In this document: piece after piece, positions 16,745 through 62,413 of the stretch
Layout of the letters: each line of letters starts with the position of its first letter
Position numbering within the stretch: position 1 is the first letter of the stretch
From: a virus
Taxonomy: Duplodnaviria > Heunggongvirae > Uroviricota > Caudoviricetes
Virus record (IMG/VR): IMGVR_UViG_3300007609_001205
Coordinates: 40,834-104,833 of that record
Length of the DNA stretch: 64,000 nucleotides
Reading direction: 5' to 3' (one strand)
Made by a program: the position numbers and the translations under genes
Notes under the pieces: model-generated
What the model was told of the DNA's origin: nothing
The model's input: only the letters and a program-made list of their open reading frames with translations
Database searches by the model: none

Positions 16745-17371
16745 TCAATTAGAATATAACAATTTACTAAGGGTTATAGGTGATGGGAAATATCCAATAT
16801 CATCTACTTTCCGTCTAACCGAATTGAATAAATTTGAATAGAACATATCATAATCCTTAAAAATAAAATCATTATTATCAACATCCTTTATTGATCGCCT
16901 ACTCTCAATAAAGTCCTTAATATCAATAACATTGAACCTAGAACACGCACCACCAATGACTGCATGTTTGGTATAAGTGTTACCTCTCCTAAAAGGAACA
17001 TCTTTAAAAACCCCCAATTCCTCATTAAGTGATAACAACTCATTGAATACTCGTTCTGTTATTTCTTGGTGCTCAATGAATATCCCACACAGGTTTTCAA
17101 GATGTTGTTCATCAAATCCAAATGGCAAATTCCATTTTTTGGATATACCACTGACACCAACTTTTTCTTCGAGATCCTGTGATGGGAATACTGTGGAAAA
17201 ATAGATATCATACTCAGGTAATTCATTTGTTTCCAATTTTAATTTATCCAATTCAGAATTAACAGATATATAATCACCCTTCAGAAAGTCGGCTTCTATC
17301 GTAGATACTATCTCACGAAATTTATCAAATCCTTGAAAATTTTCATATAGTTTAATATACCTCATCACCAT
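16745..17371 (-). CDS. hypothetical protein
   Basis: 208-aa ORF; nothing recognised. Confidence 0.5.
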   Translation of the reverse strand: MVMRYIKLYENFQGFDKFREIVSTIEADFLKGDYISVNSELDKLKLETNELPEYDIYFSTVFPSQDLEEKVGVSGISKKWNLPFGFDEQHLENLCGIFIEHQEITERVFNELLSLNEELGVFKDVPFRRGNTYTKHAVIGGACSRFNVIDIKDFIESRRSIKDVDNNDFIFKDYDMFYSNLFNSVRRKVDDIGYFPSPITLSKLLYSN

Positions 17372-17444
17372 ATATATTATATTTTAAACATAACAAGGGA
17401 GGGATTATATAAACATATATATGCTATAAAAATAACTTACTATT

Positions 17445-18395
17445 ATGACTCAAAGTAACCATATGTCCGAAGAGGATTATCTCAAAAAATACATAAGCAA
17501 TGATGGTGGCAATAATAACCAATCACTTGAAAATATTGAAAATTACGAGAAGGAAAACACAAATACGAGCAAATCAGGATCACGTACAGAAGACCTACAA
17601 TACTTAACATTTGATATAAATCAATTACCATGTGGTAAATTTTACCCAATGGGTACAATCTTAACCGTAAGAGCAGCACAAGTAAGAGAGATTCAAGCAT
17701 ATTCAATGGTCGATGATAACAACTTTTATGATGTGGTTGAGAAGATGAATGATATGTTAGCATCATGTGTCAGATTAAAAAGACCAGATGGTTCCTTTGG
17801 AACATATTTAGAACTAAAAGACCAAGATAGATTATTCATAATTTTTCTAATAAGAGAACTCACTTTCCAAAAAGGGAACTCACTTGAAGTAAAAGAAAAG
17901 TGTTCTTGTGGAGAAGAAGTTAGTATGGAATTGAAAAGGGAAAATTTCAAATTCCACAAAATAGAACCATCACTGGAAAAGTTCTTTGATAGTTCATCAC
18001 AATCGTTTGTATTTGAGTTGAAAAATGGTACTGTTTTCAACCTAACACCACCAACAATAGGCATACAAAAAGCATTCACTGAATACATAATTGAAGAAAA
18101 TAACCAAAAAAGAAAACCAGACCTATCCTTTTTGAAAATAATACCATTTCTATTAGATGGACGTAGTTCTATAACAAACGAAGGCATCAAGAAAAAATTA
18201 CAAAAGTATCAACAACTTTCACCAAATGAATTCCAATTCTTAAATTCGGCAGTAGATAAACTTACATTCGGGATAAAAAATCTTAGCAGAGAATGCACGT
18301 GTGGTCAGGAGGTCCACACGGAAATGTCATTTCCCAACGGAGCGTCAGGTATTTTCGTTATTCATGATGCCTTTGAAAAGTTTATTAAAGAATAA
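17445..18395 (+). CDS. hypothetical protein with duplicated C-x-C-G-(E/Q)-E-V motif
   Basis: EKCSCGEEV and RECTCGQEVHTE lie ~140 aa apart, suggesting internal duplication and possible metal binding. Confidence 0.5.
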   Translation: MTQSNHMSEEDYLKKYISNDGGNNNQSLENIENYEKENTNTSKSGSRTEDLQYLTFDINQLPCGKFYPMGTILTVRAAQVREIQAYSMVDDNNFYDVVEKMNDMLASCVRLKRPDGSFGTYLELKDQDRLFIIFLIRELTFQKGNSLEVKEKCSCGEEVSMELKRENFKFHKIEPSLEKFFDSSSQSFVFELKNGTVFNLTPPTIGIQKAFTEYIIEENNQKRKPDLSFLKIIPFLLDGRSSITNEGIKKKLQKYQQLSPNEFQFLNSAVDKLTFGIKNLSRECTCGQEVHTEMSFPNGASGIFVIHDAFEKFIKE

Positions 18396-31094: not shown

Positions 31095-32867
31095 TTACTT
31101 TTCAGTCGGTCTTAATGGAACTGCAGTGGAACCAGCATCTCCCATATCACTTTCTGATACATCTACTGAACCTGTATCATTTTTTGGCTCAGAATTTCCA
31201 CCGAATTTCTCCAACATCTTAAGTGTTTGATACATTCCCATACCCATCATTGGATCAGTTTCATCACCATCACTAGAATCATCAGAACCATTTTGGTAAT
31301 TATAGAACTGTGGTGCTGCAAGTGCTTGTGCAGGCAATTCCTTCATAAATTCCATAAGTCTCAACTGGAATGACATATCTTTCCCAAATACATTCACAAG
31401 TTCTTCTTGACCTTTCGCAACACCTTTATTATATAGGTATTCAGCCTCACCATCCAATCTACGTGCTTCTTTATTCTCAGCAGCAGCTTGTTTCTTAATC
31501 TGTGCAGCTACAAGCGCACCTTGTTGTTCAGCTTCGGCTTTTGCTTTAGATGATGCAACTTTTGCATGGAATGCCTTCTGTTCTTCCTTATAGGTTTGCT
31601 TCAACTTATAAGCCAACTGTTTTCTCTTATCAGGAACAAGCAATTCAGGTGGAATCGAAACAGATGTTAATCGGAATTCTTTAACCTTAACTTTATTCTT
31701 CATAGCCTCATCTACAATAAATTTTTCAATAGAACTCTCAATATCACTACGTTTTGTTACGAATTCAGTAGCTTCTCTAAGTTCTCCTTGATTACGAACC
31801 TGTGACCTTACAAGTGGTGTTATTACCTTGTTTTCAAGATCAACCAAACTCCCAATGGATGATAGGATATATGGAGCATCTTCTGCATCGATCTGTACTA
31901 ATAATCGACCATTTACATGAACTTCCCAACCATCTTTTGTCTTAGTACCCATTGCATCATCTGCAACACCCGATTCTTTACCATATTCAATTGGCTCACG
32001 TGTTTGGGTGATATCACCATTCTCACTCACTTCAAGGTCAATGGTTGCAGTTTTATAATTACCCGCATACTTCCATGTCTGAACACGTGTGTTGAATTTA
32101 GTGATAGTATATGCATTTGTGTTGATGTAATATTTTGATGGTGTAAGTACTTTCTTTCGAATACCTCTAAACCCTTCACCTACAACCGGGTTTGCTAACT
32201 CACCACCATCTGCTGCTCGTTGAATGTCATCTGGAACTTTACCGACTTTTGATAAAACCACACCAACATAACCAGGGGGGATTGTAGTGGCTCTTTCTAA
32301 TTTCGTTCTAAATAAATAAGTATTGATCTTATACTCACCAGGTTCAAGTACATTTAATTGTGGTCCTTTACGCCCACCATTCTCCAAAAAGTACTTCGCA
32401 TCCAACATATTTGTTTCAATACTATCACGATATTGTTCTTGATCAGGTGATACCCAATCAGGTGCAATAAATTCCTCACCTACCAATGGCTGACCATCAA
32501 GTGCAGTAAGAGTTCCCACCATACCATCTGGAACAACAAATGTAGAATCATAGGTAACGGTGTTGTTTACATTAACCCACCAATGCCATGCCATACCCTC
32601 CGAAAGAATTTTCGCCTGACGACCATTTTCGCCATTTTTTGAAATGACACCATCCGTGTTTGATACACCACCCCATTTCTTATAAATAAGACCAATATTC
32701 TCCTTTGGGACACTGATCAAGGAAGTGGCCACGAAACCACCCAAAAAGAAAATGGCTGATACTACCCACAAATGCCACCTTTTGACGGGAAACCTTGGTT
32801 GTTGAAAAATGGGTATAAAAGATGCTCCAAGAGCAATAACCGATAAAATTAATAAAATTGCATACAT
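31095..32867 (-). CDS. membrane-anchored SPFH/band-7 (flotillin/YqiK-like) protein
   Basis: Two N-terminal TM helices and a central SPFH-like region. A coiled coil rich in A/E/Q/K (AEAEQQGALVAAQIKKQAAAENKEARRLDGEAEY) is typical of flotillins. The C-terminal tail is acidic. Confidence 0.55.
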   Translation of the reverse strand: MYAILLILSVIALGASFIPIFQQPRFPVKRWHLWVVSAIFFLGGFVATSLISVPKENIGLIYKKWGGVSNTDGVISKNGENGRQAKILSEGMAWHWWVNVNNTVTYDSTFVVPDGMVGTLTALDGQPLVGEEFIAPDWVSPDQEQYRDSIETNMLDAKYFLENGGRKGPQLNVLEPGEYKINTYLFRTKLERATTIPPGYVGVVLSKVGKVPDDIQRAADGGELANPVVGEGFRGIRKKVLTPSKYYINTNAYTITKFNTRVQTWKYAGNYKTATIDLEVSENGDITQTREPIEYGKESGVADDAMGTKTKDGWEVHVNGRLLVQIDAEDAPYILSSIGSLVDLENKVITPLVRSQVRNQGELREATEFVTKRSDIESSIEKFIVDEAMKNKVKVKEFRLTSVSIPPELLVPDKRKQLAYKLKQTYKEEQKAFHAKVASSKAKAEAEQQGALVAAQIKKQAAAENKEARRLDGEAEYLYNKGVAKGQEELVNVFGKDMSFQLRLMEFMKELPAQALAAPQFYNYQNGSDDSSDGDETDPMMGMGMYQTLKMLEKFGGNSEPKNDTGSVDVSESDMGDAGSTAVPLRPTEK

Positions 32868-33698: not shown

Positions 33699-33875
33699 AT
33701 GGGAAGGCCAAAAGGACAAAATAAAGAAAAGGTTGGATTTTCAATCGATAAAAAGATAATGAAACAACTTGACGAGTTCTGTGAATTGAATTCAATCAAC
33801 CGTTCGAAACTTGTCAATAATATAGTCAAGGACTATTTAGAAAATAATCTGATAGAAATATGTCAAGACAAATAG
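33699..33875 (+). CDS. ribbon-helix-helix-like small DNA-binding protein (possible small terminase/regulator)
   Basis: MGRPKGQNKEKVGFSIDKKIMKQLDEFCELNSINRSKLVNNIVKDYLE has an Arc/CopG-like RHH pattern. It lies immediately upstream of, and overlaps, the TerL gene. Confidence 0.4.
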   Translation: MGRPKGQNKEKVGFSIDKKIMKQLDEFCELNSINRSKLVNNIVKDYLENNLIEICQDK

Positions 33876-35959
33876 TATGGACAACGGCAATGGTCGAAGA
33901 GGCAGCCGAAAAGATAAATAATGGATTCTTATTATCAAGGGCAGAAAACCCATTCCACGAGGGAACAATAGGTCTTCGGAAGAATAAAGTAACCTTCAAA
34001 ATGTCCCCAAATGAATTACAAGAGTATATTAAATGTAAAACAGATGTACATTACTTTGCTGAGAATTATTGTTGGGTGAAGGGTGAGAAAGGTGAACCAG
34101 TAAGACTTAGACTAAGAGATTACCAAGTAGATATATTAGATAAATTCTATAACAACAGATTCAATATATTAATGGCGAGTAGGCAAGTTGGTAAAACTAT
34201 ATGCTCATCTATAATGTTACTTCATTTTGTCTTATTCAACAACAATAAGAATGCACTTGTGACTGCAAACAAATTAGACACTGCAGTTGAAGTACTTGAT
34301 AAAATGAGAGAAATATACCAAAGACTTCCATTCTTCTTACAAGCAGGGATTGTCAATTGGAGTATGAAGACCATTGTGTTCGAAAACAAATCAAGAATAA
34401 AGGGATTTGCCACAACAAAAACAGCATCCATTGGACAGGCTGCCGATTTCCTTTACTTGGATGAGTTTGCATACCTACCAGACAATATTGCCGAAAAGTT
34501 CTATAAATCCGTATTCCCAACAGTATCTTCTATGGAAAATTCCAAGATCATTATAACATCCACTCCAAATGGGTATAACCTTTTCCACAAATTATTAACA
34601 GATGCCGAGAAACCAGAAGGCGAGAAATCAAACTACTGTGCAAATAGAGTATATTGGTGGCAAGTACCAAAAAGACACGTTACATACATAAGACTCGATA
34701 ATAAAAAATTAAAGAAGTTTGGTGTAACCAAAGAAGAAGTAAAAGAACTCCTCGAAACGAAATACCCAAATACAGAAACATCAATAAAGTGGAATGATGA
34801 AATACACAAATGGGTAATTCATAAATTAAATGATAAAGATTGTACCGAGGAAATGATTCTAAATGAGAAAATAGGGGATGTTAAATTCCCTATGTTGGGT
34901 GATATAACCACATGGAAAAAAGAAACCATTAAAGATATCGGTGGAGAAGAGGCATTCAACCAAGAATTTGACCTCAGATTTATCAATACATCTAGGTCAT
35001 TATTGGATGAAACACTCATAAAGGAATTAAAAGACAACACCACCGAATACGAATACCAACACATAGACGAGATAAAAGATAAGATAAGATTCGATGTAAC
35101 TGACCTCAAATGGAACTCAAACCCCGAAGTTTATGAACACGAAAAAAGAAAGGATTACAAAATAGTGTTATCAGTAGATATTGCAGAGGGGTTAGGACAA
35201 GACTCATCTGTTATAAACATATTCAAGGTAAAACCAAAACCAATTGATCTAATCAAAAAACACGGCAAAAAGTATAAAGGACTTCAAGACTTTTACCAAT
35301 TAGAACAAATAGGGATATTCAAAAATAACCTTGTTTCTGTGAAGGAATTATCAGAACTCCTATACATAATTGGATTTGAACATTTTGAACCAGATAACGT
35401 CAAAATAGTTGTAGAACTTAACAATTATGGAAATGAGTTAGTTGCACACATGCCACATTTATTTGATGGGAATAATAACTATGGATCATCTGTTTTCTTC
35501 CGTTACAAACATCGTATAGATTCCCAAGATGAGAAAATTGGACTCAAGGTTGGGAATAATAAAAACTTATTGGTAAAATCATATCAGGAAAGAATGGACT
35601 CACGTAGTATCATAATAACCAACTCAGATAACATAGACGAAATGACCACATTCATAAAACACACAACCAATGCAGGGAATGTAGTTTATAAGGCAGATGG
35701 GTCTAAACACGATGACCAAGTTATGACTGTAGTAAATGTATCAAGTGTTTTCGAGAAAGTACAATTTCACCAAATGGTAGAAGACTACCACTACGAGATC
35801 ACAGATAGTGAAGTGAAGAAAATAATAGATGAAATAATGAAAAATATACAATATGATGACCCTGTTGATTATGGTCAGTTATTAGATATAAGACGCAGAA
35901 AAATGGGGAAACATAATAAATCACAAGTCGCCAAAAAGAATTGGGGATTACAGCCATGA
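33860..35959 (+). CDS. terminase large subunit, T4 gp17-like
   Basis: The Walker A motif MASRQVGKT, the Walker B motif FLYLDEFAY, and a C-terminal nuclease region; 699 aa. Confidence 0.8.
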   Translation: MSRQIVWTTAMVEEAAEKINNGFLLSRAENPFHEGTIGLRKNKVTFKMSPNELQEYIKCKTDVHYFAENYCWVKGEKGEPVRLRLRDYQVDILDKFYNNRFNILMASRQVGKTICSSIMLLHFVLFNNNKNALVTANKLDTAVEVLDKMREIYQRLPFFLQAGIVNWSMKTIVFENKSRIKGFATTKTASIGQAADFLYLDEFAYLPDNIAEKFYKSVFPTVSSMENSKIIITSTPNGYNLFHKLLTDAEKPEGEKSNYCANRVYWWQVPKRHVTYIRLDNKKLKKFGVTKEEVKELLETKYPNTETSIKWNDEIHKWVIHKLNDKDCTEEMILNEKIGDVKFPMLGDITTWKKETIKDIGGEEAFNQEFDLRFINTSRSLLDETLIKELKDNTTEYEYQHIDEIKDKIRFDVTDLKWNSNPEVYEHEKRKDYKIVLSVDIAEGLGQDSSVINIFKVKPKPIDLIKKHGKKYKGLQDFYQLEQIGIFKNNLVSVKELSELLYIIGFEHFEPDNVKIVVELNNYGNELVAHMPHLFDGNNNYGSSVFFRYKHRIDSQDEKIGLKVGNNKNLLVKSYQERMDSRSIIITNSDNIDEMTTFIKHTTNAGNVVYKADGSKHDDQVMTVVNVSSVFEKVQFHQMVEDYHYEITDSEVKKIIDEIMKNIQYDDPVDYGQLLDIRRRKMGKHNKSQVAKKNWGLQP

Positions 35960-35977
35960 AAATTTAGCCAACTACAC

Positions 35978-36466
35978 CTATTTAGACATACATCTATACA
36001 ATTTCTGTACTAATTTATCAAAACTCATCCTAATATCAACTTCTATTTCCTCATTATCAGAAATATTAACCAATACTGTGTTTTCACCTTTCGTAATAAG
36101 ATACGACTCACCGCCAATATACCAATTCGTGGACTCATCGAAAATCAGTTCGGTTTTTACATCACTACTGACCTCTAAAAATACCCTTTCCAATTTTTTC
36201 AATATCTCAAGGAACAATTCCTCTTTCTTCATGTTTTCTCGATCCCACTCACCTTTCCTAATAAGTTTCAAAAACTCTACCTTAGAAGGGATATTATACA
36301 TTTTCATATAAGTCGAAAAATCGTGTTTATGAAATTTATGGAGATAATCCTCTCCCAATTGAGCAATCACATACCTAAGATGTAACAACTCAATACTTTC
36401 TTCAAATATTGGAATAGGAAGACCCAATATACTCGATGTATGAACTGACATTTTAATTAGGTTCAA
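35978..36466 (-). CDS. hypothetical protein
   Basis: 162-aa ORF. Confidence 0.45.
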   Translation of the reverse strand: MNLIKMSVHTSSILGLPIPIFEESIELLHLRYVIAQLGEDYLHKFHKHDFSTYMKMYNIPSKVEFLKLIRKGEWDRENMKKEELFLEILKKLERVFLEVSSDVKTELIFDESTNWYIGGESYLITKGENTVLVNISDNEEIEVDIRMSFDKLVQKLYRCMSK

Positions 36467-36728
36467 CAGTCACTGAAAGGTCAGCACCTTGTAGTTTCTC
36501 TTTCATGGTGTTCAATTTATCATAATCACCATACTTAACATCACACACACCCTTAAAATGTACAATATGGGCACATTGTGTTGCTTGTTCTGTCGTATGA
36601 CCACACACCGTAACAAGACATTGTATTACATGATCGAATGTGTTCTTATCATCGTTATGAAGAAGTAATTTATATGGTTGCGAAAGCAACTCTTCTGCAT
36701 CTGTTTTTTTCTCTGTTTTAGTTGACAT
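36453..36728 (-). CDS. clpS: ClpS-like ATP-dependent Clp protease adaptor
   Basis: YKLLLHNDDKNTFDHVIQCLVTVCGHTTEQATQCAHIVHFKGVCDVKYGDYDKLNTMKEKL parallels the ClpS core [24 protein letters not shown]...ATQLMLAVHYQGKAICGVF. Confidence 0.7.
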   Translation of the reverse strand: MSTKTEKKTDAEELLSQPYKLLLHNDDKNTFDHVIQCLVTVCGHTTEQATQCAHIVHFKGVCDVKYGDYDKLNTMKEKLQGADLSVTVEPN

Positions 36729-36786
36729 ATGTTATATTAATTAGTTTTTACAAATATACAAAATAATATTTAATTTACACAAATAA

Positions 36787-37350
36787 TCACTCGTTTATAA
36801 CAACGGGTGTCTTATCTGATTTGGTAACATCAATTACCTCAACCCTACATGGTTGTTCCGGTGCCCACTCTTCAATGAACTTAACCAAGTGAGCATGACG
36901 GTCATCATACATTACAAATGTATCAGGATTGTATTTCTCAATGAGATCACTATATAGAATAGATTTAAAATCATAAGTATCCATACCAGGATTCAAATAA
37001 GTATGTGTCCCAAAATCAATGTTGTGATGTCTTAAAATATCCATAACCTGTTTCCTAAGAGATAACCTACCGGGTCTTTCACCATTACGTGATTTATCTA
37101 ACCGACCAGTCGCAAGAATAGGTAAAGTTGCCTCTTCTGAACACGCCTCAAGGTATTTTTTATAAACAAATGGATTAACAGGTATGTCAAATATATTTAT
37201 ATCCAAAGATTCCGGTTTTGACCACCACCCCGGATATGGCCAATCAAGACCAGTAGATTCCGACCAAAACTTTTTCCCCCAATCCTCCTTAGGACTATAC
37301 ACAAGTGTGTCGTCAAAATCAAATGATACTATTTTATCTACATACTCCAT
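36787..37350 (-). CDS. HAD-superfamily phosphatase/nucleotidase
   Basis: FDFDDTL (DxDxT) forms motif I, with downstream conserved T/S and K/D motifs. Confidence 0.6.
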   Translation of the reverse strand: MEYVDKIVSFDFDDTLVYSPKEDWGKKFWSESTGLDWPYPGWWSKPESLDINIFDIPVNPFVYKKYLEACSEEATLPILATGRLDKSRNGERPGRLSLRKQVMDILRHHNIDFGTHTYLNPGMDTYDFKSILYSDLIEKYNPDTFVMYDDRHAHLVKFIEEWAPEQPCRVEVIDVTKSDKTPVVINE

Positions 37351-37446
37351 TCTATCTAATCTTTTTCTATGTAATTATATATAATGTATATATATTAAAC
37401 ATATATCGCAAAGATACTAAAAATATTAACATAATTATGTTTTCAA

Positions 37447-37880
37447 CTATACTTAAAAAAATTGGACAGATGGATGCCAAAACAATTGTAATATTCATCC
37501 TATTAGCATTATTGGCTTTCTTCTATGTAAAAGGAATGTTTAACCCAAGTGATGACAATTCAGACAAAATTTCGGAACTCGAAAAAATAAACAAGCAATT
37601 GGAAAAGGATCGAGATAACTTAGAAGATGCATATGAAACAACTTATGAAATGTATCTGAATGATTCAAGTGAATTATCAGAATTGAAAAAAGAATTCGAC
37701 CTTTTGGAAGCACTTCTTGCAGACAAAGAAAGAGAACTTAAAAAATCAAGAAAGGAATTATCCGAAGCAAGAAAAAGAGCCGAAGAAACTCGCAAGAAAA
37801 TTAAAGAACTTGAAGAAACCCCAATAAAAAGGACAGGAAACGACCTAATAGAATCTATTCAAGAAAAAACAACAAAATAA
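37447..37880 (+). CDS. N-terminally membrane-anchored coiled-coil protein (lysis-associated candidate)
   Basis: MFSTILKKIGQMDAKTIVIFILLALLAFFYV forms a TM helix, followed by a long coiled coil. The track ORF starts further upstream at 37305. Confidence 0.45.
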
Positions 37881-38587: not shown

Positions 38588-39178
38588 TTGAAAAACATGG
38601 GCTATACTAGAAAATTTGAAAGTTTCAAAAAAAACAAAACTACCAAAGTTGATGAAAAAACACAACCAAAAGTAGAAAAAGAAATCAATGAGGCTGCATC
38701 CGAAGCAGGTAATATGTTCAAGGTTGTTGTATCCGTAGATGTTCCAACTTCTCTTGTTAATTCTTATACTAAAAAAGTTAAAGATACGTATGAAAAGGAT
38801 CTTGCTAATACATATGGTAGGGAAACTATTGCAGAAGAACTTGCAAAGTATGTTCTTACAAATTATCTAAATGTTGATGCAGTACATGCAGGAGCATTAA
38901 CAGGTGATCCAGACCCAGCACAGGCACAAGCCCAAGCGCAACCACAACAACAAGCACAAGTTCAACCACAAGGTCAGATGCAACCACAGGCACAAGGACA
39001 GCCACAAGCACAAGTACAAGAGCCACAAACACAAGTACAAGAGCCAGAAGCACAACCAATTGACCCAGAACTTCAGGCACAAGCACAATCACAAGTTCAA
39101 CCATCACCAGAAGAATTTGAGGAAATACAAGCCCAAGATGATGAAGATGAAGAAATGGATGAAGAACTTCCTATCTAA
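38588..39178 (+). CDS. low-complexity PQ/AQ-repeat acidic protein
   Basis: Central PDPAQAQAQAQPQQQAQVQPQGQMQPQAQGQPQAQVQEPQTQVQEPEAQP and a D/E-rich C-terminus, followed by a strong terminator. Confidence 0.5.
   Translation: MKNMGYTRKFESFKKNKTTKVDEKTQPKVEKEINEAASEAGNMFKVVVSVDVPTSLVNSYTKKVKDTYEKDLANTYGRETIAEELAKYVLTNYLNVDAVHAGALTGDPDPAQAQAQAQPQQQAQVQPQGQMQPQAQGQPQAQVQEPQTQVQEPEAQPIDPELQAQAQSQVQPSPEEFEEIQAQDDEDEEMDEELPI
38910..39110. repeat. CA-rich imperfect tandem repeat encoding the QAQ/PQ tract
   Basis: Runs of cacaag/cacagg/gcacaa units, which is why all three antisense frames are open here. Confidence 0.6.
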
Positions 39179-40636: not shown

Positions 40637-41071
40637 TTATACAAGGTCAACTTGTCCATCTTTTTGTTGCTGGTCATATAAATCACTAATCTGATTTGCC
40701 CTTGCGACACTCTCAATACCATAATTATTAATTATTCCCGCGAATGTTGTAAGATCAGGTTTAACCAACTTAATTTTACCCGATTTTGGATCTATCGTGA
40801 TTTTATCCAATTCAGTTTCGATAAGGATATCAACACTCTCATCGTCATCGAATGCATCTAAAAGATTCTCATTAAAAGATACCATTAATTCTTTATCCAA
40901 AATAAAGGCATAGTGGTCAGGTAATTTAGTCAATTTAACCAACTCCTTTTGTTTTACATTTCCAATAAATTGGAATCGCATGGCCATCGGAAAAGCCTTT
41001 TTTTCGAAAACTCTCATAAAAGTTTCCTTTGTAGTTTCATCTAACTCTTGAAATTTATCCATTTTATCCAT
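40637..41071 (-). CDS. hypothetical protein
   Basis: 144-aa ORF. Confidence 0.5.
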   Translation of the reverse strand: MDKMDKFQELDETTKETFMRVFEKKAFPMAMRFQFIGNVKQKELVKLTKLPDHYAFILDKELMVSFNENLLDAFDDDESVDILIETELDKITIDPKSGKIKLVKPDLTTFAGIINNYGIESVARANQISDLYDQQQKDGQVDLV

Positions 41072-52405: not shown

Positions 52406-52451
52406 AATAAATCCAAAAATTAAAATATAAGTATTAAAATACTATATAGTA

Positions 52452-53189
52452 TCATGATGTTGCATCTTTTTTGCCCATGGAGGGATTCATTCCTATAAAA
52501 TTACCATTTGCCGATTTAATGTCTGAACAACCCAACATTTCTTTTAAAACATCAGATATTACTTCATCCGTTAATAAATTATTAGAATATGTCTTCAATT
52601 TTGATTCATCAACGAATTTCCCCACCTCAACTTCCATAGGAAATCCTTCTACCTTAACTTTTGATTTCGAAATAGAATTTGATATCATTGATATCATATT
52701 ATCTTTGATTATGTTCATTTCAGATTCATCAAATACAACAACACGATTATCTGCAACCATTCCATCAACATCAAATATATGCCTTGCCGGATTTACAATT
52801 GATATTCTACTCAAAGCCGTATCAAATTTATCTGCCAATATCTTTTCATGGTCAATAGATGCATTTGGTATATTACTATACACATCAATTTCTGAAACTT
52901 CCGATTCAAGTGACTCCATTATATAACTTTCAAAAGTGAGTACATTATCCTTTTCCATTGAAACCCGATCATCAATAACATCATCAATTACCCTATTGAT
53001 CATTTTAACACTATCCAACCCACTCTTCTCAAGGTAGGATTTTACACGATTTGGATTAAGATACTTCTTCAATTTTGAAGGTCGTATGTTCCATTCATCT
53101 ATGTATGAATCAATATACTGATTTATAAGATCATAATACTTATTAACCTCTTCTGTTGTTTCCATATCAGTATATATAAAATCTTTCAT
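52452..53189 (-). CDS. hypothetical acidic protein
   Basis: 245-aa ORF. Confidence 0.45.
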   Translation of the reverse strand: MKDFIYTDMETTEEVNKYYDLINQYIDSYIDEWNIRPSKLKKYLNPNRVKSYLEKSGLDSVKMINRVIDDVIDDRVSMEKDNVLTFESYIMESLESEVSEIDVYSNIPNASIDHEKILADKFDTALSRISIVNPARHIFDVDGMVADNRVVVFDESEMNIIKDNMISMISNSISKSKVKVEGFPMEVEVGKFVDESKLKTYSNNLLTDEVISDVLKEMLGCSDIKSANGNFIGMNPSMGKKDATS

Positions 53190-53317
53190 ACCAAAGTATG
53201 ATGTGCATTAGGTTTTTAATATATAGATTAAATTACAGATACAATTCAATGTTCCTTTCGAGTTCAAAAAGTTACCATAACAGAAAACCGGTTGAATTTA
53301 TAATACGTGAGAATTAT

Positions 53318-54154
53318 ATGTCCTTACGAGAAGACAAGGAATATATCCCAAGATTTTCATTCAAAGATATTACTGAGTTCAAGAACATTCCGATAAACGA
53401 ACCAATAAAGTATAACCAAGACATTGTTATAAAGGCGATAAAATATGGTATGATCTTTCTTATAAATTACAAAGGTGAAGAAGATAAACACTTTGCCGGA
53501 CACGAAAGAGTTATTTATCCAATGGTCATTGGTAGGTCATCAAAAGGTAAAATACTTATAAGAGGATGGCATTTGAATGGATGGTCGGTTTCTAAGAATC
53601 GCCACGTAAATAAGATATGGAGGCTGTTCAGAGGGGATAGAATTCTTTCTATGACATTCACCGGTTCATTTTACAGACTTGCCCCCGAAGGGTATAATAT
53701 GAATGATAAAGGAATGAGAGGTGGTATTATTGCCAAGGCAGATTTTAATGCTATACGAAGAAACCAACAGAATTTGGTAAAACGGAATTACCTACAAAAC
53801 CGAGACGAAGTATCAATTGGTACAGATGAAGAAAAATTCTCAACTATTCGATTAAAGAATACTGAATCTCAATTAGACCTCAACGAACCAACGGAAAACG
53901 CATACATAAATAACCTAAAATCTTCTGATAATTTGAGGATAAGTTTTCTTAAGTCAATATATGGAACTGAATATGTTGCAGTCCTTGGGGCAATCGGTAA
54001 GCCAGGGAACACTGTGAAAATACTCACAGATGATGGTAAGAGTTTAGGCGTATATAAAGTACTCGATTCAACCACGGGGGAGATATTGAAAAATATAAAG
54101 AACGTCAAAGGAAATACCATATACGACCTATACATATTTGACAAGAAATTGTAA
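53318..54154 (+). CDS. WYL-like domain protein
   Basis: ILIRGWHLNGWSVS....WRLFRGDRILSM resembles the WYL signature (W-Y/H-L ... FR.DRI). The track ORF starts at 53198; the ATG at 53318 (MSLREDKEY) is more plausible. Confidence 0.4.
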   Translation: MSLREDKEYIPRFSFKDITEFKNIPINEPIKYNQDIVIKAIKYGMIFLINYKGEEDKHFAGHERVIYPMVIGRSSKGKILIRGWHLNGWSVSKNRHVNKIWRLFRGDRILSMTFTGSFYRLAPEGYNMNDKGMRGGIIAKADFNAIRRNQQNLVKRNYLQNRDEVSIGTDEEKFSTIRLKNTESQLDLNEPTENAYINNLKSSDNLRISFLKSIYGTEYVAVLGAIGKPGNTVKILTDDGKSLGVYKVLDSTTGEILKNIKNVKGNTIYDLYIFDKKL

Positions 54155-54186
54155 AAACAAAGTTTAGTATCTGATATATAAATTAT

Positions 54187-54678
54187 ATGGAAATATACAC
54201 ACAAAAAGAGATAGATTCTATCAGGAGCAAACAAGAAACCAATGACCGTTTAGAAAAATATTTCTTACAAAAGAGAGATGGTTGGAATAACTTACTAGCA
54301 CCACTTTTTGAGGTCGTTAAAATGGAACCATCAAAAGAGACATCTACAAAAATAACAGATACTCAATCAATGTCATTGGCATATCGTCAAAAAATAAATG
54401 AGGAGATATCAATATATCTTGAAAAAAGATCAAGACAAGATGTTAAGATAAAAAAGTTGAAACAAGATAAGTTCTTGTTCTATGCAACGGGATTTGGTCT
54501 AAAAACAAATTATGGCGAGAAACAATTGATGATAGATGGTCATATCCGAGAAGAAGAAAGAAACATCGAATTAATTGAAAATTATGTAGAGTTTTTACGT
54601 GCAATGAATAAAAACCTTGAATCACTTCAATATACTTTGAAAAATATTATCGAACTTTACAATATCCTATTAAGATAA
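54187..54678 (+). CDS. hypothetical protein
   Basis: 163-aa ORF. Confidence 0.45.
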   Translation: MEIYTQKEIDSIRSKQETNDRLEKYFLQKRDGWNNLLAPLFEVVKMEPSKETSTKITDTQSMSLAYRQKINEEISIYLEKRSRQDVKIKKLKQDKFLFYATGFGLKTNYGEKQLMIDGHIREEERNIELIENYVEFLRAMNKNLESLQYTLKNIIELYNILLR

Positions 54679-54707
54679 ATTACACTAACCAATTTAATAT
54701 ATACCAT

Positions 54708-55142
54708 ATGGAGAAATTTTTAGAAAAGTTCGATGAATTCGAAAGAAAGAATTATAATAGGAAATATCCACGTATAATTAATCCTGAAACAATTTGGGAT
54801 GGTACTTGTAATTTAATAAGGAATATGGACAGAAAAGGACTACACCCATATTACCTGAATGATAAATACGAACTTTTGGAAATACAACACACACCACAAG
54901 GAGTTCCATATAAATTAAGTCCTTCTGGAAAGAAACAATACCAAAAAGATAGAAAAAACACATTTGGTACTATTTACTTTGTAAGAGATGAAGAACTTTC
55001 TGAATTAAACCCTGTTGTAGAACAAATGCAATCCCTTATTACGAAATTGGATAAAATGAGGGAAACACTCAGTGACCTAGTCGGTAGTAAGGTACAACAC
55101 CATTTTGGAAAAGATGATTACGAAAGAGACCGAGAGGAATAA
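54708..55142 (+). CDS. hypothetical protein
   Basis: 144-aa ORF. Confidence 0.45.
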   Translation: MEKFLEKFDEFERKNYNRKYPRIINPETIWDGTCNLIRNMDRKGLHPYYLNDKYELLEIQHTPQGVPYKLSPSGKKQYQKDRKNTFGTIYFVRDEELSELNPVVEQMQSLITKLDKMRETLSDLVGSKVQHHFGKDDYERDREE

Positions 55143-55195
55143 AGGTTTCTGCTAAGATAATATAAACATCCATATACATTATACATATACATGAT

Positions 55196-55504
55196 ATGCA
55201 ATACGTTGTCAAAGAAGACATAATTGTGGCAGATCAAACTATTGCCACAACCGGAGAAACATTCGAAGAAATTGATGGTTTCATAGAAGTTAATACATCA
55301 TTTGGGAGTTCTATGAAATTCGATGTTACCAAATCAAGTAAATTCTTTAAAGCCAAAAATGATATAGATGTTAGATTCAAGGAAATAGACTCCGATGATG
55401 ATGCCATTAAAACATGGAGATTACAATTGGATGTGAAGACAACACGCACAAATGCAAAGAAAATTGAAAAATATCTTAAAGAAAGTTTAGCTAATATGAT
55501 ATAA
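55196..55504 (+). CDS. hypothetical protein
   Basis: 102-aa ORF. Confidence 0.4.
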   Translation: MQYVVKEDIIVADQTIATTGETFEEIDGFIEVNTSFGSSMKFDVTKSSKFFKAKNDIDVRFKEIDSDDDAIKTWRLQLDVKTTRTNAKKIEKYLKESLANMI

Positions 55505-55521
55505 ATCCTTATATTTGCATC

Positions 55522-56106
55522 ATGTTTCTACGGTTGGAGAATAATCACTTAGTTAAATTTTTACCCATGCCATTAAAGGATGGTACATATACTGATCGTA
55601 TTGAAAGTGATGCAATATACTATAATAATACCACTATTTACGACCGAACTGGGTATCTAAAAGAATTGATGAATGAACACCTAAAGCAACGAAATGAACG
55701 TCCGATAAGTTATTACAATATGACATACGCACTTGTTATCTATAATGGACAAATAAGATTTGTAAAAATTGGTAGAACTTTATTAAATATTCTTCCTAGT
55801 AAACTATACAACATCAAAACAAACGAACATTTGTTAGTGTGTACTACCAATACAACAAGTGCTTTTCCCGACTTTAGATCATCAAAATTAGTAATGTGTG
55901 ATTACAAACAACCCATACAATCTAAAAATGTTGAAGATTGGGTTAGGTATATCAGAAAAGAACAACCATTTTATTTGGAAGATTGGCTCAATAGATATGA
56001 AATTTCTAAAAATATTCCTATTTTAGAAGAATTATTCGGAGAAAATTCTATTCAAAGAATCACTCAAAAAAGGAGAAATGAAAAATTAAACAATATATTA
56101 ACTTGA
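55522..56106 (+). CDS. hypothetical protein
   Basis: 194-aa ORF. Confidence 0.45.
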   Translation: MFLRLENNHLVKFLPMPLKDGTYTDRIESDAIYYNNTTIYDRTGYLKELMNEHLKQRNERPISYYNMTYALVIYNGQIRFVKIGRTLLNILPSKLYNIKTNEHLLVCTTNTTSAFPDFRSSKLVMCDYKQPIQSKNVEDWVRYIRKEQPFYLEDWLNRYEISKNIPILEELFGENSIQRITQKRRNEKLNNILT

Positions 56107-56121
56107 ACGTATAATCAATAG

Positions 56122-56328
56122 ATGGGATTTTTGAATAATTTTTTTGGCTATCGGTCATGGTTAAAAGAACCGAAATATTGTGAACATTGTGATGATACAG
56201 GAGAGATTGAAGTTATTGTAATGGGAACTGATGATACGAATTACGTAGAATGCACAGTTTGTAAAAATAGACCATCAAGAGTACGAACCAAAAGAAACAG
56301 AACACTAACCAAAATATTAGACACATGA
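56122..56328 (+). CDS. small zinc-ribbon protein
   Basis: CEHCDDTG...CTVCKN forms a CxxC-x20-CxxC arrangement. Confidence 0.4.
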   Translation: MGFLNNFFGYRSWLKEPKYCEHCDDTGEIEVIVMGTDDTNYVECTVCKNRPSRVRTKRNRTLTKILDT

Positions 56329-57239
56329 CAACAGATCCAACAAATTATTCAATTGGCGTAGTGGTGGCGAGATTCCAAGTCGATGATCTCCACGAAGGAC
56401 ACCATCACATTATTGAACAAGTTTCCAATAACCATGGAAAGATTCTTGTATTTCTAGGAATACCGGAATTCATTGGAACAATGAAAAATCCACTGGACTT
56501 TGACACAAGGAAAAAGATGGTTCAACAAGATTACCCCAATGCAGTGATCATGTCAATACCGGACCAACCGGAAAATGACCTATGGGCAAAGGAATTGGAT
56601 AGACGAATCCGAGAAATTTACCCAAAATCCCACGGAGAAGTTCTACTTTATGGTTCAAGGGATTCATTCATTCCGTCATATGAAGATGGTGGCGGTGAAT
56701 TCGACTGCACCGAATTAAAATCACATGGTACATATGCAGGTATTGATATCCGAAAGAAAATATCTGATGAAAACCTTGCCTCACGAGATTTCAGGTATGG
56801 ATGCATCTATACAGCATATAACCAATTTCCAAGAGTTATTCCAGGGGTAGATATTATCCTCATGAGAAAAGGGAAAGTTATGTTGGCAAAAAGATATAAT
56901 GAACATCGATACCGATTCATCGGTTCTCTGGTAAAAGAGGGTTCTGATTCATTCGATGTTGCTGCCAACAAAATACTCACCGAAAAAATCGGAAGCAATT
57001 GTGAGATAAGTCCTTTGAAATATCTATTCTCAACAAATGTTGATGATTGGCGTGTGAGGAATTCAAGGGATAGTGTTATATCCACTGTTTTTGAGACAGA
57101 AATACTATGGGGTCACCCACAACCATATTCTAAATATGACGAAATCAAAGAATTTGATATTTCTGACATAAACCACGAAATCATCACCAAAGATCACCAT
57201 CCAATTCTCGAAAAATATTTAAAAATTAAAACAAAATAA
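56325..57239 (+). CDS. natV: bifunctional NMN adenylyltransferase / Nudix hydrolase (NatV/NadM-like)
   Basis: N-terminal cytidylyltransferase motif VVVARFQVDDLHEGHHHII (HxGH) and a C-terminal Nudix-box-like region GSLVKEGSDSFDVAANKILTEKIGS. It lies directly upstream of the NadV-like gene, as in vibriophage KVP40. Confidence 0.65.
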   Translation: MTTDPTNYSIGVVVARFQVDDLHEGHHHIIEQVSNNHGKILVFLGIPEFIGTMKNPLDFDTRKKMVQQDYPNAVIMSIPDQPENDLWAKELDRRIREIYPKSHGEVLLYGSRDSFIPSYEDGGGEFDCTELKSHGTYAGIDIRKKISDENLASRDFRYGCIYTAYNQFPRVIPGVDIILMRKGKVMLAKRYNEHRYRFIGSLVKEGSDSFDVAANKILTEKIGSNCEISPLKYLFSTNVDDWRVRNSRDSVISTVFETEILWGHPQPYSKYDEIKEFDISDINHEIITKDHHPILEKYLKIKTK

Positions 57240-57241
57240 TT

Positions 57242-58894
57242 ATGAAAACAGTCAAATTACCACAGAAAAGGGTTACTCGAACCCCAAGATTACTTTTAGC
57301 AGATGCTTATACAGTCGGAGGAAATGATTTCCAAAGTGATAAAGCACAAGAGAAATCATCCTATTATGCAACATTCAGAAGGGAGTTATTTAAGATAAAC
57401 CCCGACCTATATGTAAAAGGAGATAACCGAATGGTCTTTTACGGACTTGGGAGAATCCTCGAAAAATTATTTTATGATCCGGTCACACATCAAGAAATAG
57501 ATGATGCCAAGGCGTTCTTAGAAACAGCCAAAGTAACTGCAACAGGCCTAACAAAATACAATTTCCCCGAAGAACTATGGCGAACAGTAGTAGATGATTA
57601 CAACGGAAGACCACCTATTAGAATTATGGCAATGCCCGAAGGATCTGTTGTTTATCCAAACGAACCAGTAATGCAAGTTACAAGTACTGCACATGGACGT
57701 AAAATGGGTGAGTTGGCAGCATGGTTTGAGAGTAAGTTACTACAAGTATGGGCAACTTCTGAAAGAGCCACACAAGATAGACATTGGCTTAATTACCTTA
57801 TTGAAATGGTAAAGGAAATTGACCCGAACAACGAACAATTCCTATTGGATGCATCATCAATGCTTACCGATTTTGGTGACCGAGCCGGGGCATGTATGAT
57901 GGAATCTGATGAAATTCCATTGGGTGGTCTATTGAGTTTTATGGGATCAGATACATTCTCAGCAGGATATCAAGCATGGAATGAATCCGGTCGAAAAGAA
58001 CCAACTGCAATCAGTGTGTTGGCACTTGCCCATAGAAATGTACAAGCATATGAAAAAGAAGAAGATTGCTACCGTGCATTATACGATGCTATGGAAGACA
58101 ATGAAATTGGGAGTTTTGTGGCTGATTGCTACGACTACTATAATGCAGTGGAAAACCATTTGTTAAAACTTGCACTCGAAAGTAAGAAAACCGGAAATGG
58201 GAAAGTTGTTACAGTAAGACCCGATAGTGGTGACCCAGTAGAACAAGTTATTTGGACATGCCGATTGGCAGTAAAAAATGGTCTTTATACCGAAAGAGCC
58301 ATCACTGACAAACATGGCATGAAAAGACATTGGAAGTTCGGTACATTCTTGAAATTCATTGAAGGTGATGGAATGGATTTCAAAACAATGAAAGATATTA
58401 TGAAAGCTTTGATGTCTGAAGGATTTGCACCTTACGGTTGGGGATTATTTGGATCTGGTGGCGGATTAAGAAACAATCTCAAAAGAGATAACCTATCTGC
58501 AAAATATGCAATCAATGCAGTGGGAGATGATAATACAGGAGTTATCAAAACATCTGAGGTTGTTGAGAAGTCAAGCCTACCCGGACCATTGAAAGTCCTT
58601 AGAACAAAAGAAGCACTCCAAAAGGGAGAAACTATAACATTCTTAGACAATGATGGTGAAAATGCAATGAAGCTTTACTTTGATGGATCAAATATTTGGG
58701 AACCATTCGGACCAGGAATGGATGACCATTTCTTGGTTGCAAAGGAAAGACTAAATGAGCAATGGGACTCTATGCCAAAAAACTTACCAAACAAGTTTCC
58801 AGCAACAACAGATGTTCTCGAAGAAAGAGACAGATTATTGGCTATCAATGCTCCATCAAAATTCGAAGAACGTAGTTTTGGAACACTTGCATAA
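57242..58894 (+). CDS. nadV: nicotinamide phosphoribosyltransferase (NadV/NAMPT)
   Basis: N-terminus LLLADAYTVGG parallels NAMPT LLATDSYKVTH; the motif GLFGSGGGL is conserved; 550 aa. Confidence 0.7.
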   Translation: MKTVKLPQKRVTRTPRLLLADAYTVGGNDFQSDKAQEKSSYYATFRRELFKINPDLYVKGDNRMVFYGLGRILEKLFYDPVTHQEIDDAKAFLETAKVTATGLTKYNFPEELWRTVVDDYNGRPPIRIMAMPEGSVVYPNEPVMQVTSTAHGRKMGELAAWFESKLLQVWATSERATQDRHWLNYLIEMVKEIDPNNEQFLLDASSMLTDFGDRAGACMMESDEIPLGGLLSFMGSDTFSAGYQAWNESGRKEPTAISVLALAHRNVQAYEKEEDCYRALYDAMEDNEIGSFVADCYDYYNAVENHLLKLALESKKTGNGKVVTVRPDSGDPVEQVIWTCRLAVKNGLYTERAITDKHGMKRHWKFGTFLKFIEGDGMDFKTMKDIMKALMSEGFAPYGWGLFGSGGGLRNNLKRDNLSAKYAINAVGDDNTGVIKTSEVVEKSSLPGPLKVLRTKEALQKGETITFLDNDGENAMKLYFDGSNIWEPFGPGMDDHFLVAKERLNEQWDSMPKNLPNKFPATTDVLEERDRLLAINAPSKFEERSFGTLA

Positions 58895-59628
58895 TGAGTA
58901 GAGTTTTCAACAAAGAAGATGTTAAAAGGTGGCAAAAGAGGTTCGATGAACTTGATATCTCTTGCCACCTTATTGACGAATCAAGTAAAATAGTAGCATT
59001 CTATCAAAAAACAAGTAACCATACATTCCAACCTAATATAACCCAAATTCAAGAATTACAAATATCTACACATTTTAAATATAAATTTAATTACTCAGTT
59101 CCAAAGAGTAATTTAAACACATTCAATAAGATATTAGACGATACACTTAACAACAGACCATTTATCATAAGACAACAGAACGATAACACTTATACAAATG
59201 ATAAAATAATAACCCCCCTATCTGAATTACCCACGATTAAAAGAACCGAACTTTTTATAAATGGAACTGATTACATATTACACGAGGCAACATTACACAC
59301 ACAATTATCAAATTTGATAATGTGGGTAACAAATGTTGAGGATGCATTTATAACCCTATCAAAATGGTATCCACTTGATGGTAATGGAGAAGAATTATCC
59401 AAACTCCCATTCAAATTACATGATATAGTTTCACGTAAAGGGAAAAGAGATGAATGCCTTATCAAAGGAATATCATATAATAGGGAATTTTTATTCTATG
59501 ATATAATAGAAATAAATGAAAAAATAGGTAATTCTATCATATTCGGTGATAATTATAAGCAATCTCCTGAATTCCTTGAAATATCAAGAAACTCTAAATT
59601 AGTAAGTTTACTCAAAGCCTCCAAATGA
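58894..59628 (+). CDS. hypothetical protein
   Basis: 244-aa ORF. Confidence 0.45.
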   Translation: MSRVFNKEDVKRWQKRFDELDISCHLIDESSKIVAFYQKTSNHTFQPNITQIQELQISTHFKYKFNYSVPKSNLNTFNKILDDTLNNRPFIIRQQNDNTYTNDKIITPLSELPTIKRTELFINGTDYILHEATLHTQLSNLIMWVTNVEDAFITLSKWYPLDGNGEELSKLPFKLHDIVSRKGKRDECLIKGISYNREFLFYDIIEINEKIGNSIIFGDNYKQSPEFLEISRNSKLVSLLKASK

Positions 59629-60060
59629 CTTAATATGTTTGAGAGTTGAATGACTTTCATCAACTGGACCATCCGGTTCGGTATATACTCTCAATTTATC
59701 AATCACTTCCTCTAATGCAGTTATGACTTGCTTTGGCTCAGTCCCATATCGTTGGAGTATCTTTTTACTTATTTCAATAAATGATTCTTTCAGAGATGCT
59801 TCATCCTCTTTATCAGAAAGAATCAACTTTTGTATTATAACATCCCCTAATATTTTATCAAACGGCCTTAGTCCTTCTTCCAATTCATGCACAATGTCAT
59901 GAATTTCCTTTTCGGTCATATCGGATTCTTGAAACCGTTCATGTATCACAACAAGTTTTGGAAGTAGTTCCTTTATCCGATTTTCAACAACAGATGCATC
60001 AAATTCCCCTATAACATTTAATTCATTGATATGTTGCATAAACAATTGGTAATTTATCAT
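59608..60060 (-). CDS. hypothetical acidic protein
   Basis: 150-aa ORF. Confidence 0.4.
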   Translation of the reverse strand: MINYQLFMQHINELNVIGEFDASVVENRIKELLPKLVVIHERFQESDMTEKEIHDIVHELEEGLRPFDKILGDVIIQKLILSDKEDEASLKESFIEISKKILQRYGTEPKQVITALEEVIDKLRVYTEPDGPVDESHSTLKHIKSFGGFE

Positions 60061-60092
60061 ATATATTAACTACAAAATATAAGTATTCAATT

Positions 60093-60872: not shown

Positions 60873-60873
60873 T

Positions 60874-61290
60874 ATGAGTCTGGTACAATCATACAAGAAC
60901 ACCCATTATAATAGTGATATTAACATCACACTTATCGTAGATACTGATTCTAAACAATTGGATGAATTATTGAAAGACCGTGGTATGCGATCAGCCATCT
61001 ATATAACGGCATGGAACCCCTTAAGTGAAAGCCGCCCCATCAGGGAAAACCAATCATCAAACGAAAATCTTAAGGATGACCTACTCACCATTACAAGTGA
61101 GGAAAATATAATAATGGGATTTGGTGAATCTATTTCAAATGAAGTACCAGGTGAGGAAAGTTTCCTAGTATTGGGTCTTTCAAAAGAAATTGGTAATGAA
61201 CTGGCATATAAATATCAACAGAACGCCTTTATCTTACATCAGTTGAACTCTTTTACAGAGTTGGTGATAACTGATCATTATAAAGAATAA
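60874..61290 (+). CDS. hypothetical protein
   Basis: 138-aa ORF. Confidence 0.4.
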   Translation: MSLVQSYKNTHYNSDINITLIVDTDSKQLDELLKDRGMRSAIYITAWNPLSESRPIRENQSSNENLKDDLLTITSEENIIMGFGESISNEVPGEESFLVLGLSKEIGNELAYKYQQNAFILHQLNSFTELVITDHYKE

Positions 61291-61350
61291 ATAAGACCAC
61301 ATAACTTTTAAAGAAGAAAAAGGGAATACATAAGACACAATATATATTTT

Positions 61351-61888: not shown

Positions 61889-61922
61889 TTTCAACTAATA
61901 TCATTTCTAATATATAATACAT

Positions 61923-62405: not shown

Positions 62406-62413
62406 TCATTAAA

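Follow-up and report, generated by a model that had tools for sequence, protein, structure and literature searches.

We analyzed the clpS gene, encoding a homologue of the proteolytic adaptor ClpS, together with its surroundings in a 64,000-nt stretch of viral DNA assigned to Caudoviricetes (IMG/VR record IMGVR_UViG_3300007609_001205, positions 40,834 to 104,833; this whole stretch is referred to as the window). The open reading frame (ORF) lies on the minus strand, begins with ATG at 36728, and ends with TAA at 36455–36453. Its 91-aa translation product is MSTKTEKKTDAEELLSQPYKLLLHNDDKNTFDHVIQCLVTVCGHTTEQATQCAHIVHFKGVCDVKYGDYDKLNTMKEKLQGADLSVTVEPN. A preliminary description of this DNA, made from the sequence letters, had proposed that the ORF encodes a phage-borne ClpS homologue located next to a gene for a HAD phosphatase, and the two strings cited in its support, LHNDDKNTFDHV and ATQCAHIVHFKG, both occurred within the product. 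The features of the locus are listed in Table 1.

Table 1. Positions of clpS, the parts of its product, and the adjoining features in the window (AF2, AlphaFold2; dN/dS, ratio of nonsynonymous to synonymous substitution rates)
Feature	Position	Strand	Basis
Coding sequence of clpS (91 aa and the stop codon)	36453..36728	-	Pfam, AF2 model, Foldseek, dN/dS
N-terminal extension of ClpS, residues 1–18, MSTKTEKKTDAEELLSQP, ending at the junction proline P18	36675..36728	-	Model, alignment
ClpS core domain, residues 19–91	36456..36674	-	Alignment to E. coli ClpS
Pocket positions in the core: N25, D26, D27, N29, F31, V34, A53, V56, H57, and L84			
Spacer between the HAD gene and clpS, 58 nt	36729..36786	-	Sequence
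Gene for a HAD-superfamily phosphatase (HAD_SAK_1 family), 187 aa, upstream of clpS	36787..37350	-	Pfam, PHROG 415, motifs, AF2
157-aa ORF between clpS and terL	35978..36451	-	ORF list; ATG at 36451
Large terminase subunit gene, terL (T4-type), convergent with the HAD gene and clpS	33860..35959	+	Pfam Terminase_6N, PHROG 5989

A profile search against the ClpS family, which the preliminary description had named as a check, gave a match to Pfam PF02617 (ClpS) with a score of 71.1 bits and an E value of 6.6e-20, far above the gathering cutoff of 23 bits, and residues 17–81 were aligned. The product also matched PHROG 27368. When the sequences in PDB were searched with it, Arabidopsis ClpS1 (7D34, the best match, E 7e-5) and E. 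coli ClpS were found. The AF2 model, constructed from 35 homologues, had a mean predicted local distance difference test score (pLDDT) of 85, with residues 1–10 disordered and residues 19–90 well ordered. The order of its secondary structure elements, E-H-H-E-H-E, is that of the ClpS alpha/beta fold, in which three helices are placed on a three-stranded sheet. In a Foldseek search of this model against PDB, the top 38 matches were ClpS without exception, and they originated from M. smegmatis, Arabidopsis, C. crescentus, E. coli, A. tumefaciens, and Plasmodium. Superposition on the solved ClpS structures gave root-mean-square deviations (rmsd) of 0.7–1.5 Å and target-normalised template modelling (TM) scores of 0.8–0.95. 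Because the Pfam match and the fold found with AF2 and Foldseek agree, the product of 36453–36728 is a member of the ClpS family, as had been proposed. Nine NCBIfam equivalog models of ClpS, including NF000671 and NF009563, were also matched, every one below its cutoff. Since the scores fell far under all of these cutoffs, the phage protein belongs to a divergent subfamily of ClpS and is not an equivalog of the curated bacterial groups.

For comparison at the residue level, 44 distinct phage, 22 Bacteroidota, and 21 other ClpS sequences were aligned with the numbering of E. coli ClpS as the reference. In E. coli ClpS, N34, D35, D36, and H66 hold the alpha-amino group of the N-degron, and V43, V65, L99, M40, and M62 form the hydrophobic pocket, with M40 as its gatekeeper. 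The residues corresponding to the former four (N25, D26, D27, and H57) and those corresponding to V43, V65, and L99 (V34, V56, and L84) were invariant in all 44 phage copies. The N-degron pocket that the preliminary description had recognized is thus present, and the two findings that it had named as capable of disproving it, the lack of a ClpS profile match and the absence of the pocket residues, were not obtained. Relative to E. coli ClpS, three pocket changes were fixed, namely T38 to N29, the gatekeeper M40 to F31, and the pocket-wall residue M62 to A53. Because the same three changes are also common to cellular Bacteroidota ClpS, they are a trait of the lineage and no invention of the phages. 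The window copy was slightly atypical at two positions, with K28 instead of the Tyr or Phe of most copies and D83 instead of the Gly found in 43 of the 44.

The phage clade is further marked by its N-terminal extension, which is lysine-rich and has the consensus MATITKKKTKSKVEEILSKP[YF], and in which the junction proline P18 is invariant. All 18 residues of the extension had low pLDDT values in the AF2 model of the window copy and are unstructured there. The median net charge of the extension was +2 in the phage copies versus -3 in the Bacteroidota copies. ClpS extensions are normally poorly conserved (PMC9663308), so the retention of a lysine-rich extension is unusual for a ClpS. The extension of E. 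coli ClpS enters the pore of ClpA, and a flexible extension with a proline junction is required for delivery (PMC9663308). Other residues fixed specifically in the phages were Y66, S73, T74 (P in cellular Bacteroidota ClpS), K76 (C in the latter), K78, and T87. These cluster around helix 3 and the last strand, and the C-terminal E-x-N is added to them.

A megablast search of 50,697 phage records with the region from terL through clpS to the HAD gene gave zero matches. At the protein level, ClpS relatives were found among those records only in LR745206 (634 kb), LR756502 (642 kb), and LR756504 (636 kb). These are Mahaphage genomes reported by Al-Shayeb et al. (2020), with predicted Bacteroidetes hosts (PMC7162821; PMC9723777). 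The window was syntenic with LR745206 in blocks, and this synteny, together with the genes for the terminase, a RecA/UvsX-like protein, and a clamp-loader-like ATPase, confirmed the phage context in which the preliminary description had placed clpS. At least 186 IMG/VR viral contigs, up to 436 kb in length, encode ClpS relatives with 63–73% identity, and 80 viral loci were used for the locus comparisons. In 79 of these 80, the HAD gene precedes clpS, the two are read in one direction, and terL, the neighbor of clpS, converges on them, even though the terminases are only 50–69% identical. The pairwise dN/dS values, obtained with synonymous sites near saturation, were approximately 0.13, 0.26, and 0.085 for clpS, the HAD gene, and terL, respectively. 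The mean core identity was 78% for phage ClpS versus 60% for Bacteroidota ClpS. These results show that clpS has become fixed in the core gene set of a lineage of Bacteroidota megaphages and is under strong constraint.

The same observations bear on whether clpS is a recent passenger gene, a decaying host fragment without a role in infection, or cellular contamination. Huge phages hold many host-derived genes of unclear use, which would fit such an explanation. However, it is opposed by the dN/dS of 0.13 despite saturated synonymous sites, by the fixed place beside terL among terminases so divergent, and by the presence of an identical ClpS protein (P0001) in independent public assemblies. Because of the synteny and the selection, we consider that this explanation can practically be discarded.

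The best cellular ClpS matches among 185,579 species genomes were exclusively from metagenome-assembled genomes (MAGs) of Bacteroidota, with 44–57% identity, and the next ones were from Planctomycetota with approximately 33% identity. In a neighbor-joining tree based on 71 core columns, phage and Bacteroidota ClpS formed a clade in 200 of 200 bootstraps. Phage clpS is therefore of Bacteroidota origin. The phage sequences were monophyletic in the best tree and in 73 of 200 bootstraps. The simplest reading is that clpS was captured once, long ago, from a Bacteroidota host and has since been inherited vertically, and the single-capture part of this reading is weakly suggested by the tree. Because monophyly was recovered in 73 of 200 bootstraps on 71 columns, a single acquisition is likely rather than established.

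The cellular Bacteroidota proteins, which are uncharacterised MAG proteins of 89–95 aa, fall in the same length class as phage ClpS. Both groups have the signature NDD-x-NTF[DE][HWF]VI...C.H...QAEQCAHIVHF.GKC.VK.G, as well as the Phe gatekeeper and the Ala pocket-wall residue. They differ in their extensions, which are acidic and variable in the cellular proteins and Lys-rich and conserved in the phage proteins, and in gene context, because cellular Bacteroidota clpS, unlike phage clpS, is not located beside a HAD gene. In E. coli, clpS shares an operon with clpA. An arrangement of this kind was looked for in Bacteroidota and discarded, as neither clpA nor clpC adjoined clpS in any of the nine loci inspected.

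E. coli ClpS, the adaptor of ClpAP (PDB 1MBU, 2W9R, 3O2B, and 7UIV), has the same fold as phage ClpS, with an rmsd of 1.5 Å over 81 columns, and the two are alike in the residues that bind the alpha-amino group and in the unstructured extension with a proline junction. Their identity is approximately 26%, and phage ClpS differs in the pocket residues M40, M62, and T38 as described above, in the changed E82 and K84, and in lacking the RENEHP insertion that precedes the last strand of E. coli ClpS. The best structural matches were ClpS of Mycolicibacterium smegmatis (9AYN/9AYO) and Arabidopsis ClpS1 (7D34), with rmsd of 0.7–0.9 Å and target-normalised TM scores of 0.91–0.95. Phage ClpS resembles both in its short helix 3 and loop, and it has Asn at the T38 position as in Arabidopsis ClpS1, whereas its identity to them is 23–30% and its gatekeeper differs. 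Each of these two ClpS proteins cooperates with an unfoldase of the ClpC type (bioRxiv 10.1101/2024.06.12.598358). Because the closest structures are thus of ClpC-linked ClpS proteins, a ClpC-type partner for phage ClpS has a precedent.

Phage-encoded ClpS is already on record, and the idea is not new. Agrobacterium phage Atu_ph07, in which gp708 is ClpS, also lists ClpA, ClpX, ClpB, and ClpP (PMC6102473), and Iyer et al. (2021) gave jumbo-phage ClpS the same proposed role (PMC7824862). BFVD/UniProt holds annotated viral ClpS proteins, including one of an uncultured marine phage (A0A8D9CC24) with 48% identity, while the ClpS proteins of cultured phages, among which are Atu_ph07 and Klebsiella phage RaK2, are 14–27% identical to the window copy. 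These phage ClpS proteins likewise have the ClpS fold and come from very large phages. In contrast to them, clpS in the lineage of the window is a syntenic core gene rather than a patchy one, and its relatives' own unfoldase has no N-domain. No experimental study of any phage ClpS was found in the literature searched on this topic. The points added here are the status of clpS as a syntenic and constrained core gene, its Bacteroidota origin, the basic extension, the phage ClpP, and the N-domain-less ClpC in relatives.

The gene upstream of clpS had been taken for a HAD phosphatase, and this assignment was borne out. Its product matched Pfam HAD_SAK_1 with 26.0 bits against a cutoff of 25.6 bits, and PF10307 was recorded on nearly all of 120 HAD homologues among the matches listed. 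Across 50 homologues, the residues of HAD motifs I–IV, consisting of DxDxT (D11, D13, and T15), T81, K129, and D149-D150, were either invariant or conserved to at least 90%. The AF2 model had a pLDDT of 96.5, and its best PDB matches, to HAD enzymes such as GmhB, HisB-N, and the phosphatase domain of PNKP, were weak (E 3e-3 and above). When the sequences in PDB were searched with the HAD protein, only spurious matches to repeat proteins were obtained. From the motifs and the family match, the product of 36787–37350 is a HAD-superfamily phosphatase. Some HAD homologues of 282–323 aa were considered as candidate HAD-ClpS fusions and rejected, since their C-terminal additions had neither ClpS motifs nor a Pfam match to ClpS.

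The spacer between the HAD gene and clpS measures a few to approximately 30 nt in most relatives. Because it is so short there, the two genes are probably co-transcribed. Within the spacer of the window, TTTG-N20-TATATTTG agrees with the -33/-7 consensus of Bacteroidetes promoters. A Bacteroidetes-type promoter at clpS was nevertheless rejected, as the -7 box (TAnnTTTG) was found in one of 49 distinct upstream regions, that of the window, against a background of 4.4%, and the TATATTTG box is probably a chance occurrence or phage-specific. A scan of 35800–37600 for sigma-70 promoters and terminators gave fewer promoter-like sites than shuffled sequence.

Downstream of clpS, the 157-aa ORF starts one base past the clpS stop codon (TAAAATG) and would be 162 aa in length if read from an upstream TTG. 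From this arrangement, it is predicted to be translationally coupled to clpS. Homologues of this ORF were absent from the 80 viral loci and from LR745206. In the closest relatives, an unrelated ORF of approximately 260 aa is present on the opposite strand between clpS and terL. Because this spot is occupied by an unrelated ORF there, the gap between clpS and terL is a variable insertion site, and the 157-aa ORF is particular to the phage of the window.

The window has a G+C content of approximately 33%, and no tRNAs were found in it. Several other genes were annotated. The region 2156–4149 (-) encodes GDP-mannose 4,6-dehydratase (533 bits) and, adjacent to it, an NAD-dependent epimerase/reductase, corresponding to a GDP-6-deoxyhexose (fucose-type) pathway. 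The region 47–2159 (+) encodes a DUF723 protein of 530 aa that also has a treble-clef zinc finger, and after it a protein with a TnsA-like endonuclease N-domain; together they could represent a mobile or homing endonuclease pair. At 63255–63728, an HNH endonuclease is encoded. A gene for nicotinamide phosphoribosyltransferase (NAMPT/NAPRTase) at 57242–58894 (+) indicates NAD salvage as in other jumbo phages. The 1929-aa protein encoded at 8349–14138 (-) has a CBM5/12 carbohydrate-binding module and is probably a virion or fibre protein, and 31095–32867 (-) encodes a 590-aa SPFH/Band-7 domain protein. The 196-aa protein encoded at 38588–39178 (+) has low-complexity Gln/Pro/Ala repeats (PQAQ units) in its C-terminal half, which ends in an acidic tail, and its N-terminal part is kept in relatives.

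Genes for a Clp ATPase, ClpP, ClpX, and the L/F-transferase Aat were searched for in the window by Pfam analysis of 47 ORFs and by tblastn, and none was found. A contig that overlaps the window with 100% identity over 52414–64000 (11,587 nt) runs beyond its end. This contig encodes a 205-aa ClpP (PF00574) at window-equivalent positions 69470–70087 (+) (17057–17674 of locus L218), 33 kb from clpS. The protein is 73% identical to ClpP1 of LR745206 and 42.5% identical to E. coli ClpP, and the Ser, His, and Asp residues are in place. The phage of the window thus encodes its own true ClpP. A gene for a UvsW-like helicase comes after clpP on the same contig.

The complete sequence of LR745206, assembled from 13 pieces, contained two true clpP paralogues at 123556–124221 (-) and 75119–75859 (-), whose products matched PF00574 with 228 and 183 bits and showed 45% and 37% identity to ClpP of E. 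coli, respectively. This pair recalls the ClpP1/ClpP2 hetero-complexes of some bacteria. In addition, a ClpC-like double-ring AAA+ protein of 701 aa is encoded at 423224–425329 (+). Its Walker A and B motifs are intact in both rings, and it has KYRG and GYVG pore loops, the UVR motif of the middle domain, and the VGF loop for ClpP docking. It has no Clp_N domain, and a leader of approximately 45 residues with a poly-Asp run is followed directly by the D1 ring. The ad hoc Clp_N profile used in this search recovered 34 N-domains in other viral ClpC proteins and zero in LR745206. Aat was absent from LR745206 at E 1e-3. ClpC of LR756502 has the same N-domain-less form and is 82% identical to that of LR745206, and two IMG/VR contigs (262 and 436 kb) hold both clpS and a gene for N-domain-less ClpC. 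This form, of approximately 700 aa with the acidic leader kept, was widespread in IMG/VR contigs (L138–L176). A second class of viral ClpC, of approximately 830 aa and full-length with the N-domain, was found on other viral contigs. The window and its 10-kb extension contained no ClpC gene, and the presence of ClpC in the window's own phage is predicted from relatives with approximately 52% terminase identity.

Based on these results, we favor, with moderate confidence, the interpretation that phage ClpS is a functional N-recognin of Bacteroidota origin that is maintained as a core gene and feeds a ClpC/ClpA-type unfoldase coupled to a partly phage-supplied ClpP, with host ClpC as the default unfoldase. 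The delivery route of the adaptor has been established with E. coli ClpAPS (PMC9663308) and with mycobacterial ClpS-ClpC1P1P2 (bioRxiv 10.1101/2024.06.12.598358). In the proposed mechanism, an ancestor of the very large Bacteroidota phages would have taken clpS from a Bacteroidota host. The core pocket would hold a target by its free alpha-amino group and by its first residue, a bulky hydrophobic one, and the flexible lysine-rich extension would be fed into the pore of the ClpC/ClpA-type AAA+ unfoldase, which would pull on the adaptor, take over the substrate, and thread it into ClpP. The proteolytic chamber would be at least partly phage-supplied, because a ClpP is encoded by the window's phage itself. 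By default, docking would take place on the N-domain of host ClpC, because the phage ClpC of the relatives has no Clp_N docking site, and phage ClpP may function in mixed complexes. As a result, Clp would during infection degrade more proteins with N-degrons, for instance host or phage proteins that have been cleaved, and fewer of the substrates that it usually takes. That phage ClpS binds N-degrons is inferred, as are the unfoldase with which it works and its targets in the cell. The preliminary description had suggested that a phage copy of ClpS could reprogram host proteolysis, which is plausible. The picture is wider than hijacking of the host, as it includes the phage's own ClpP and the N-domain-less ClpC of its relatives. 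A gene for a putative phage metallopeptidase (PF18894, 31.5 bits) is located at 40637–41071 (-), approximately 4 kb from clpS, with 52–63% identity in relatives, and its product could supply new N-termini to ClpS.

Several points weigh against this interpretation. The best score obtained with the NCBIfam equivalog models was 40.4 bits against a cutoff of 107, and the changes M40 to F, M62 to A, and T38 to N may move the specificity away from Leu, Phe, Tyr, and Trp. Docking on the N-domain of host ClpC is assumed, and neither a stand-alone Clp_N domain nor a second ClpS was found in the 634 kb of LR745206. E79, E82, and K84 of E. coli ClpS touch the N-domain of ClpA, and in phage ClpS, E82 is replaced by S/N73 and K84 by M75, with the E79 position kept as D/E70. 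Of the contact residues to which the preliminary description had pointed, those for the N-degron and D/E70 are therefore conserved, and the other two ClpA contacts are not. The positions equivalent to E79, E82, and K84 vary in cellular Bacteroidota ClpS as well, and the same docking positions vary in actinobacterial ClpS (bioRxiv 10.1101/2024.06.12.598358), which makes sequence a poor guide to the docking surface. Because the ClpA-contact residues are only partly kept, and this is so in Bacteroidota ClpS too, a ClpC-type unfoldase is more likely as the partner than ClpA.

In another explanation, phage ClpS works for a self-contained N-degron protease, formed by the N-domain-less ClpC and the ClpP of the phage itself, and not for the host unfoldase. 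Contact would then occur via the middle domain of ClpC and/or via the basic extension, possibly on the acidic ClpC leader or the pore. We regard this explanation as tentative and rather unlikely. It would account for the occurrence in LR745206 and LR756502 of ClpS together with a motif-intact ClpC of the 701-aa type and two ClpP paralogues, and for the two IMG/VR contigs that carry both clpS and the gene for such a ClpC. The basic extension is kept in phage ClpS, unlike in cellular ones, and the leaders of phage ClpC carry a poly-Asp run, but this charge complementarity is an observation only. ClpS of M. tuberculosis was reported to act through the middle domain on a ClpC1 devoid of the N-domain (Marsee 2018, PMC6274998), and phage ClpC keeps a middle domain. 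However, this N-domain-independent route comes from a single in vitro study that showed inhibition rather than substrate delivery, and the N-domain is the docking site in E. coli (PMC9663308). In addition, the ClpC required here is one that, for the window's phage, is predicted from its relatives.

Mycobacterial ClpS suppresses proteolysis by ClpC1P1P2 outside the N-end rule (bioRxiv 10.1101/2024.06.12.598358; PMC6274998). Phage ClpS may be mainly an inhibitor that occupies the N-domain and pore of host ClpC, slows this unfoldase, blocks its normal adaptors and substrates, and shields phage proteins, while the N-domain-less phage ClpC-ClpP is insensitive to it and takes over proteolysis. It fits this explanation that the unfoldase of the relatives has lost precisely the ClpS docking domain, although the loss could have other reasons. 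For inhibition, keeping the N-degron pocket intact would be unnecessary, whereas the residues that form it are invariant. Because of this invariance a purely inhibitory role is less likely, and we consider it improbable. That the system is either a rewired, virus-owned N-degron protease composed of ClpS, N-domain-less ClpC, and one or two ClpP paralogues or a blocker of host ClpC accompanied by an immune phage ClpC is a prospect to which we give limited credence. If either were true, the phages would possess virus-encoded, adaptor-controlled proteolysis apart from that of the host.

Regulated proteolysis is a lever with which viruses take control of cells, and among viruses of eukaryotes redirection of the ubiquitin system is routine. 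The bacterial counterpart would be the Clp N-degron pathway. The significance of the present case has practical limits, as the phages are uncultured and phage ClpS is known from the literature. Nevertheless, a lineage of the largest known phages keeps clpS and its own ClpP, and we argue from the strong purifying selection, the place beside terL, and the phage's own ClpP that the choice of the proteins to be degraded is a standing need of infection. If phage ClpS works with N-domain-less ClpC, this would represent a second mode of engagement between ClpS and its unfoldase and, if true, a compact orthogonal degradation module for Bacteroidota.

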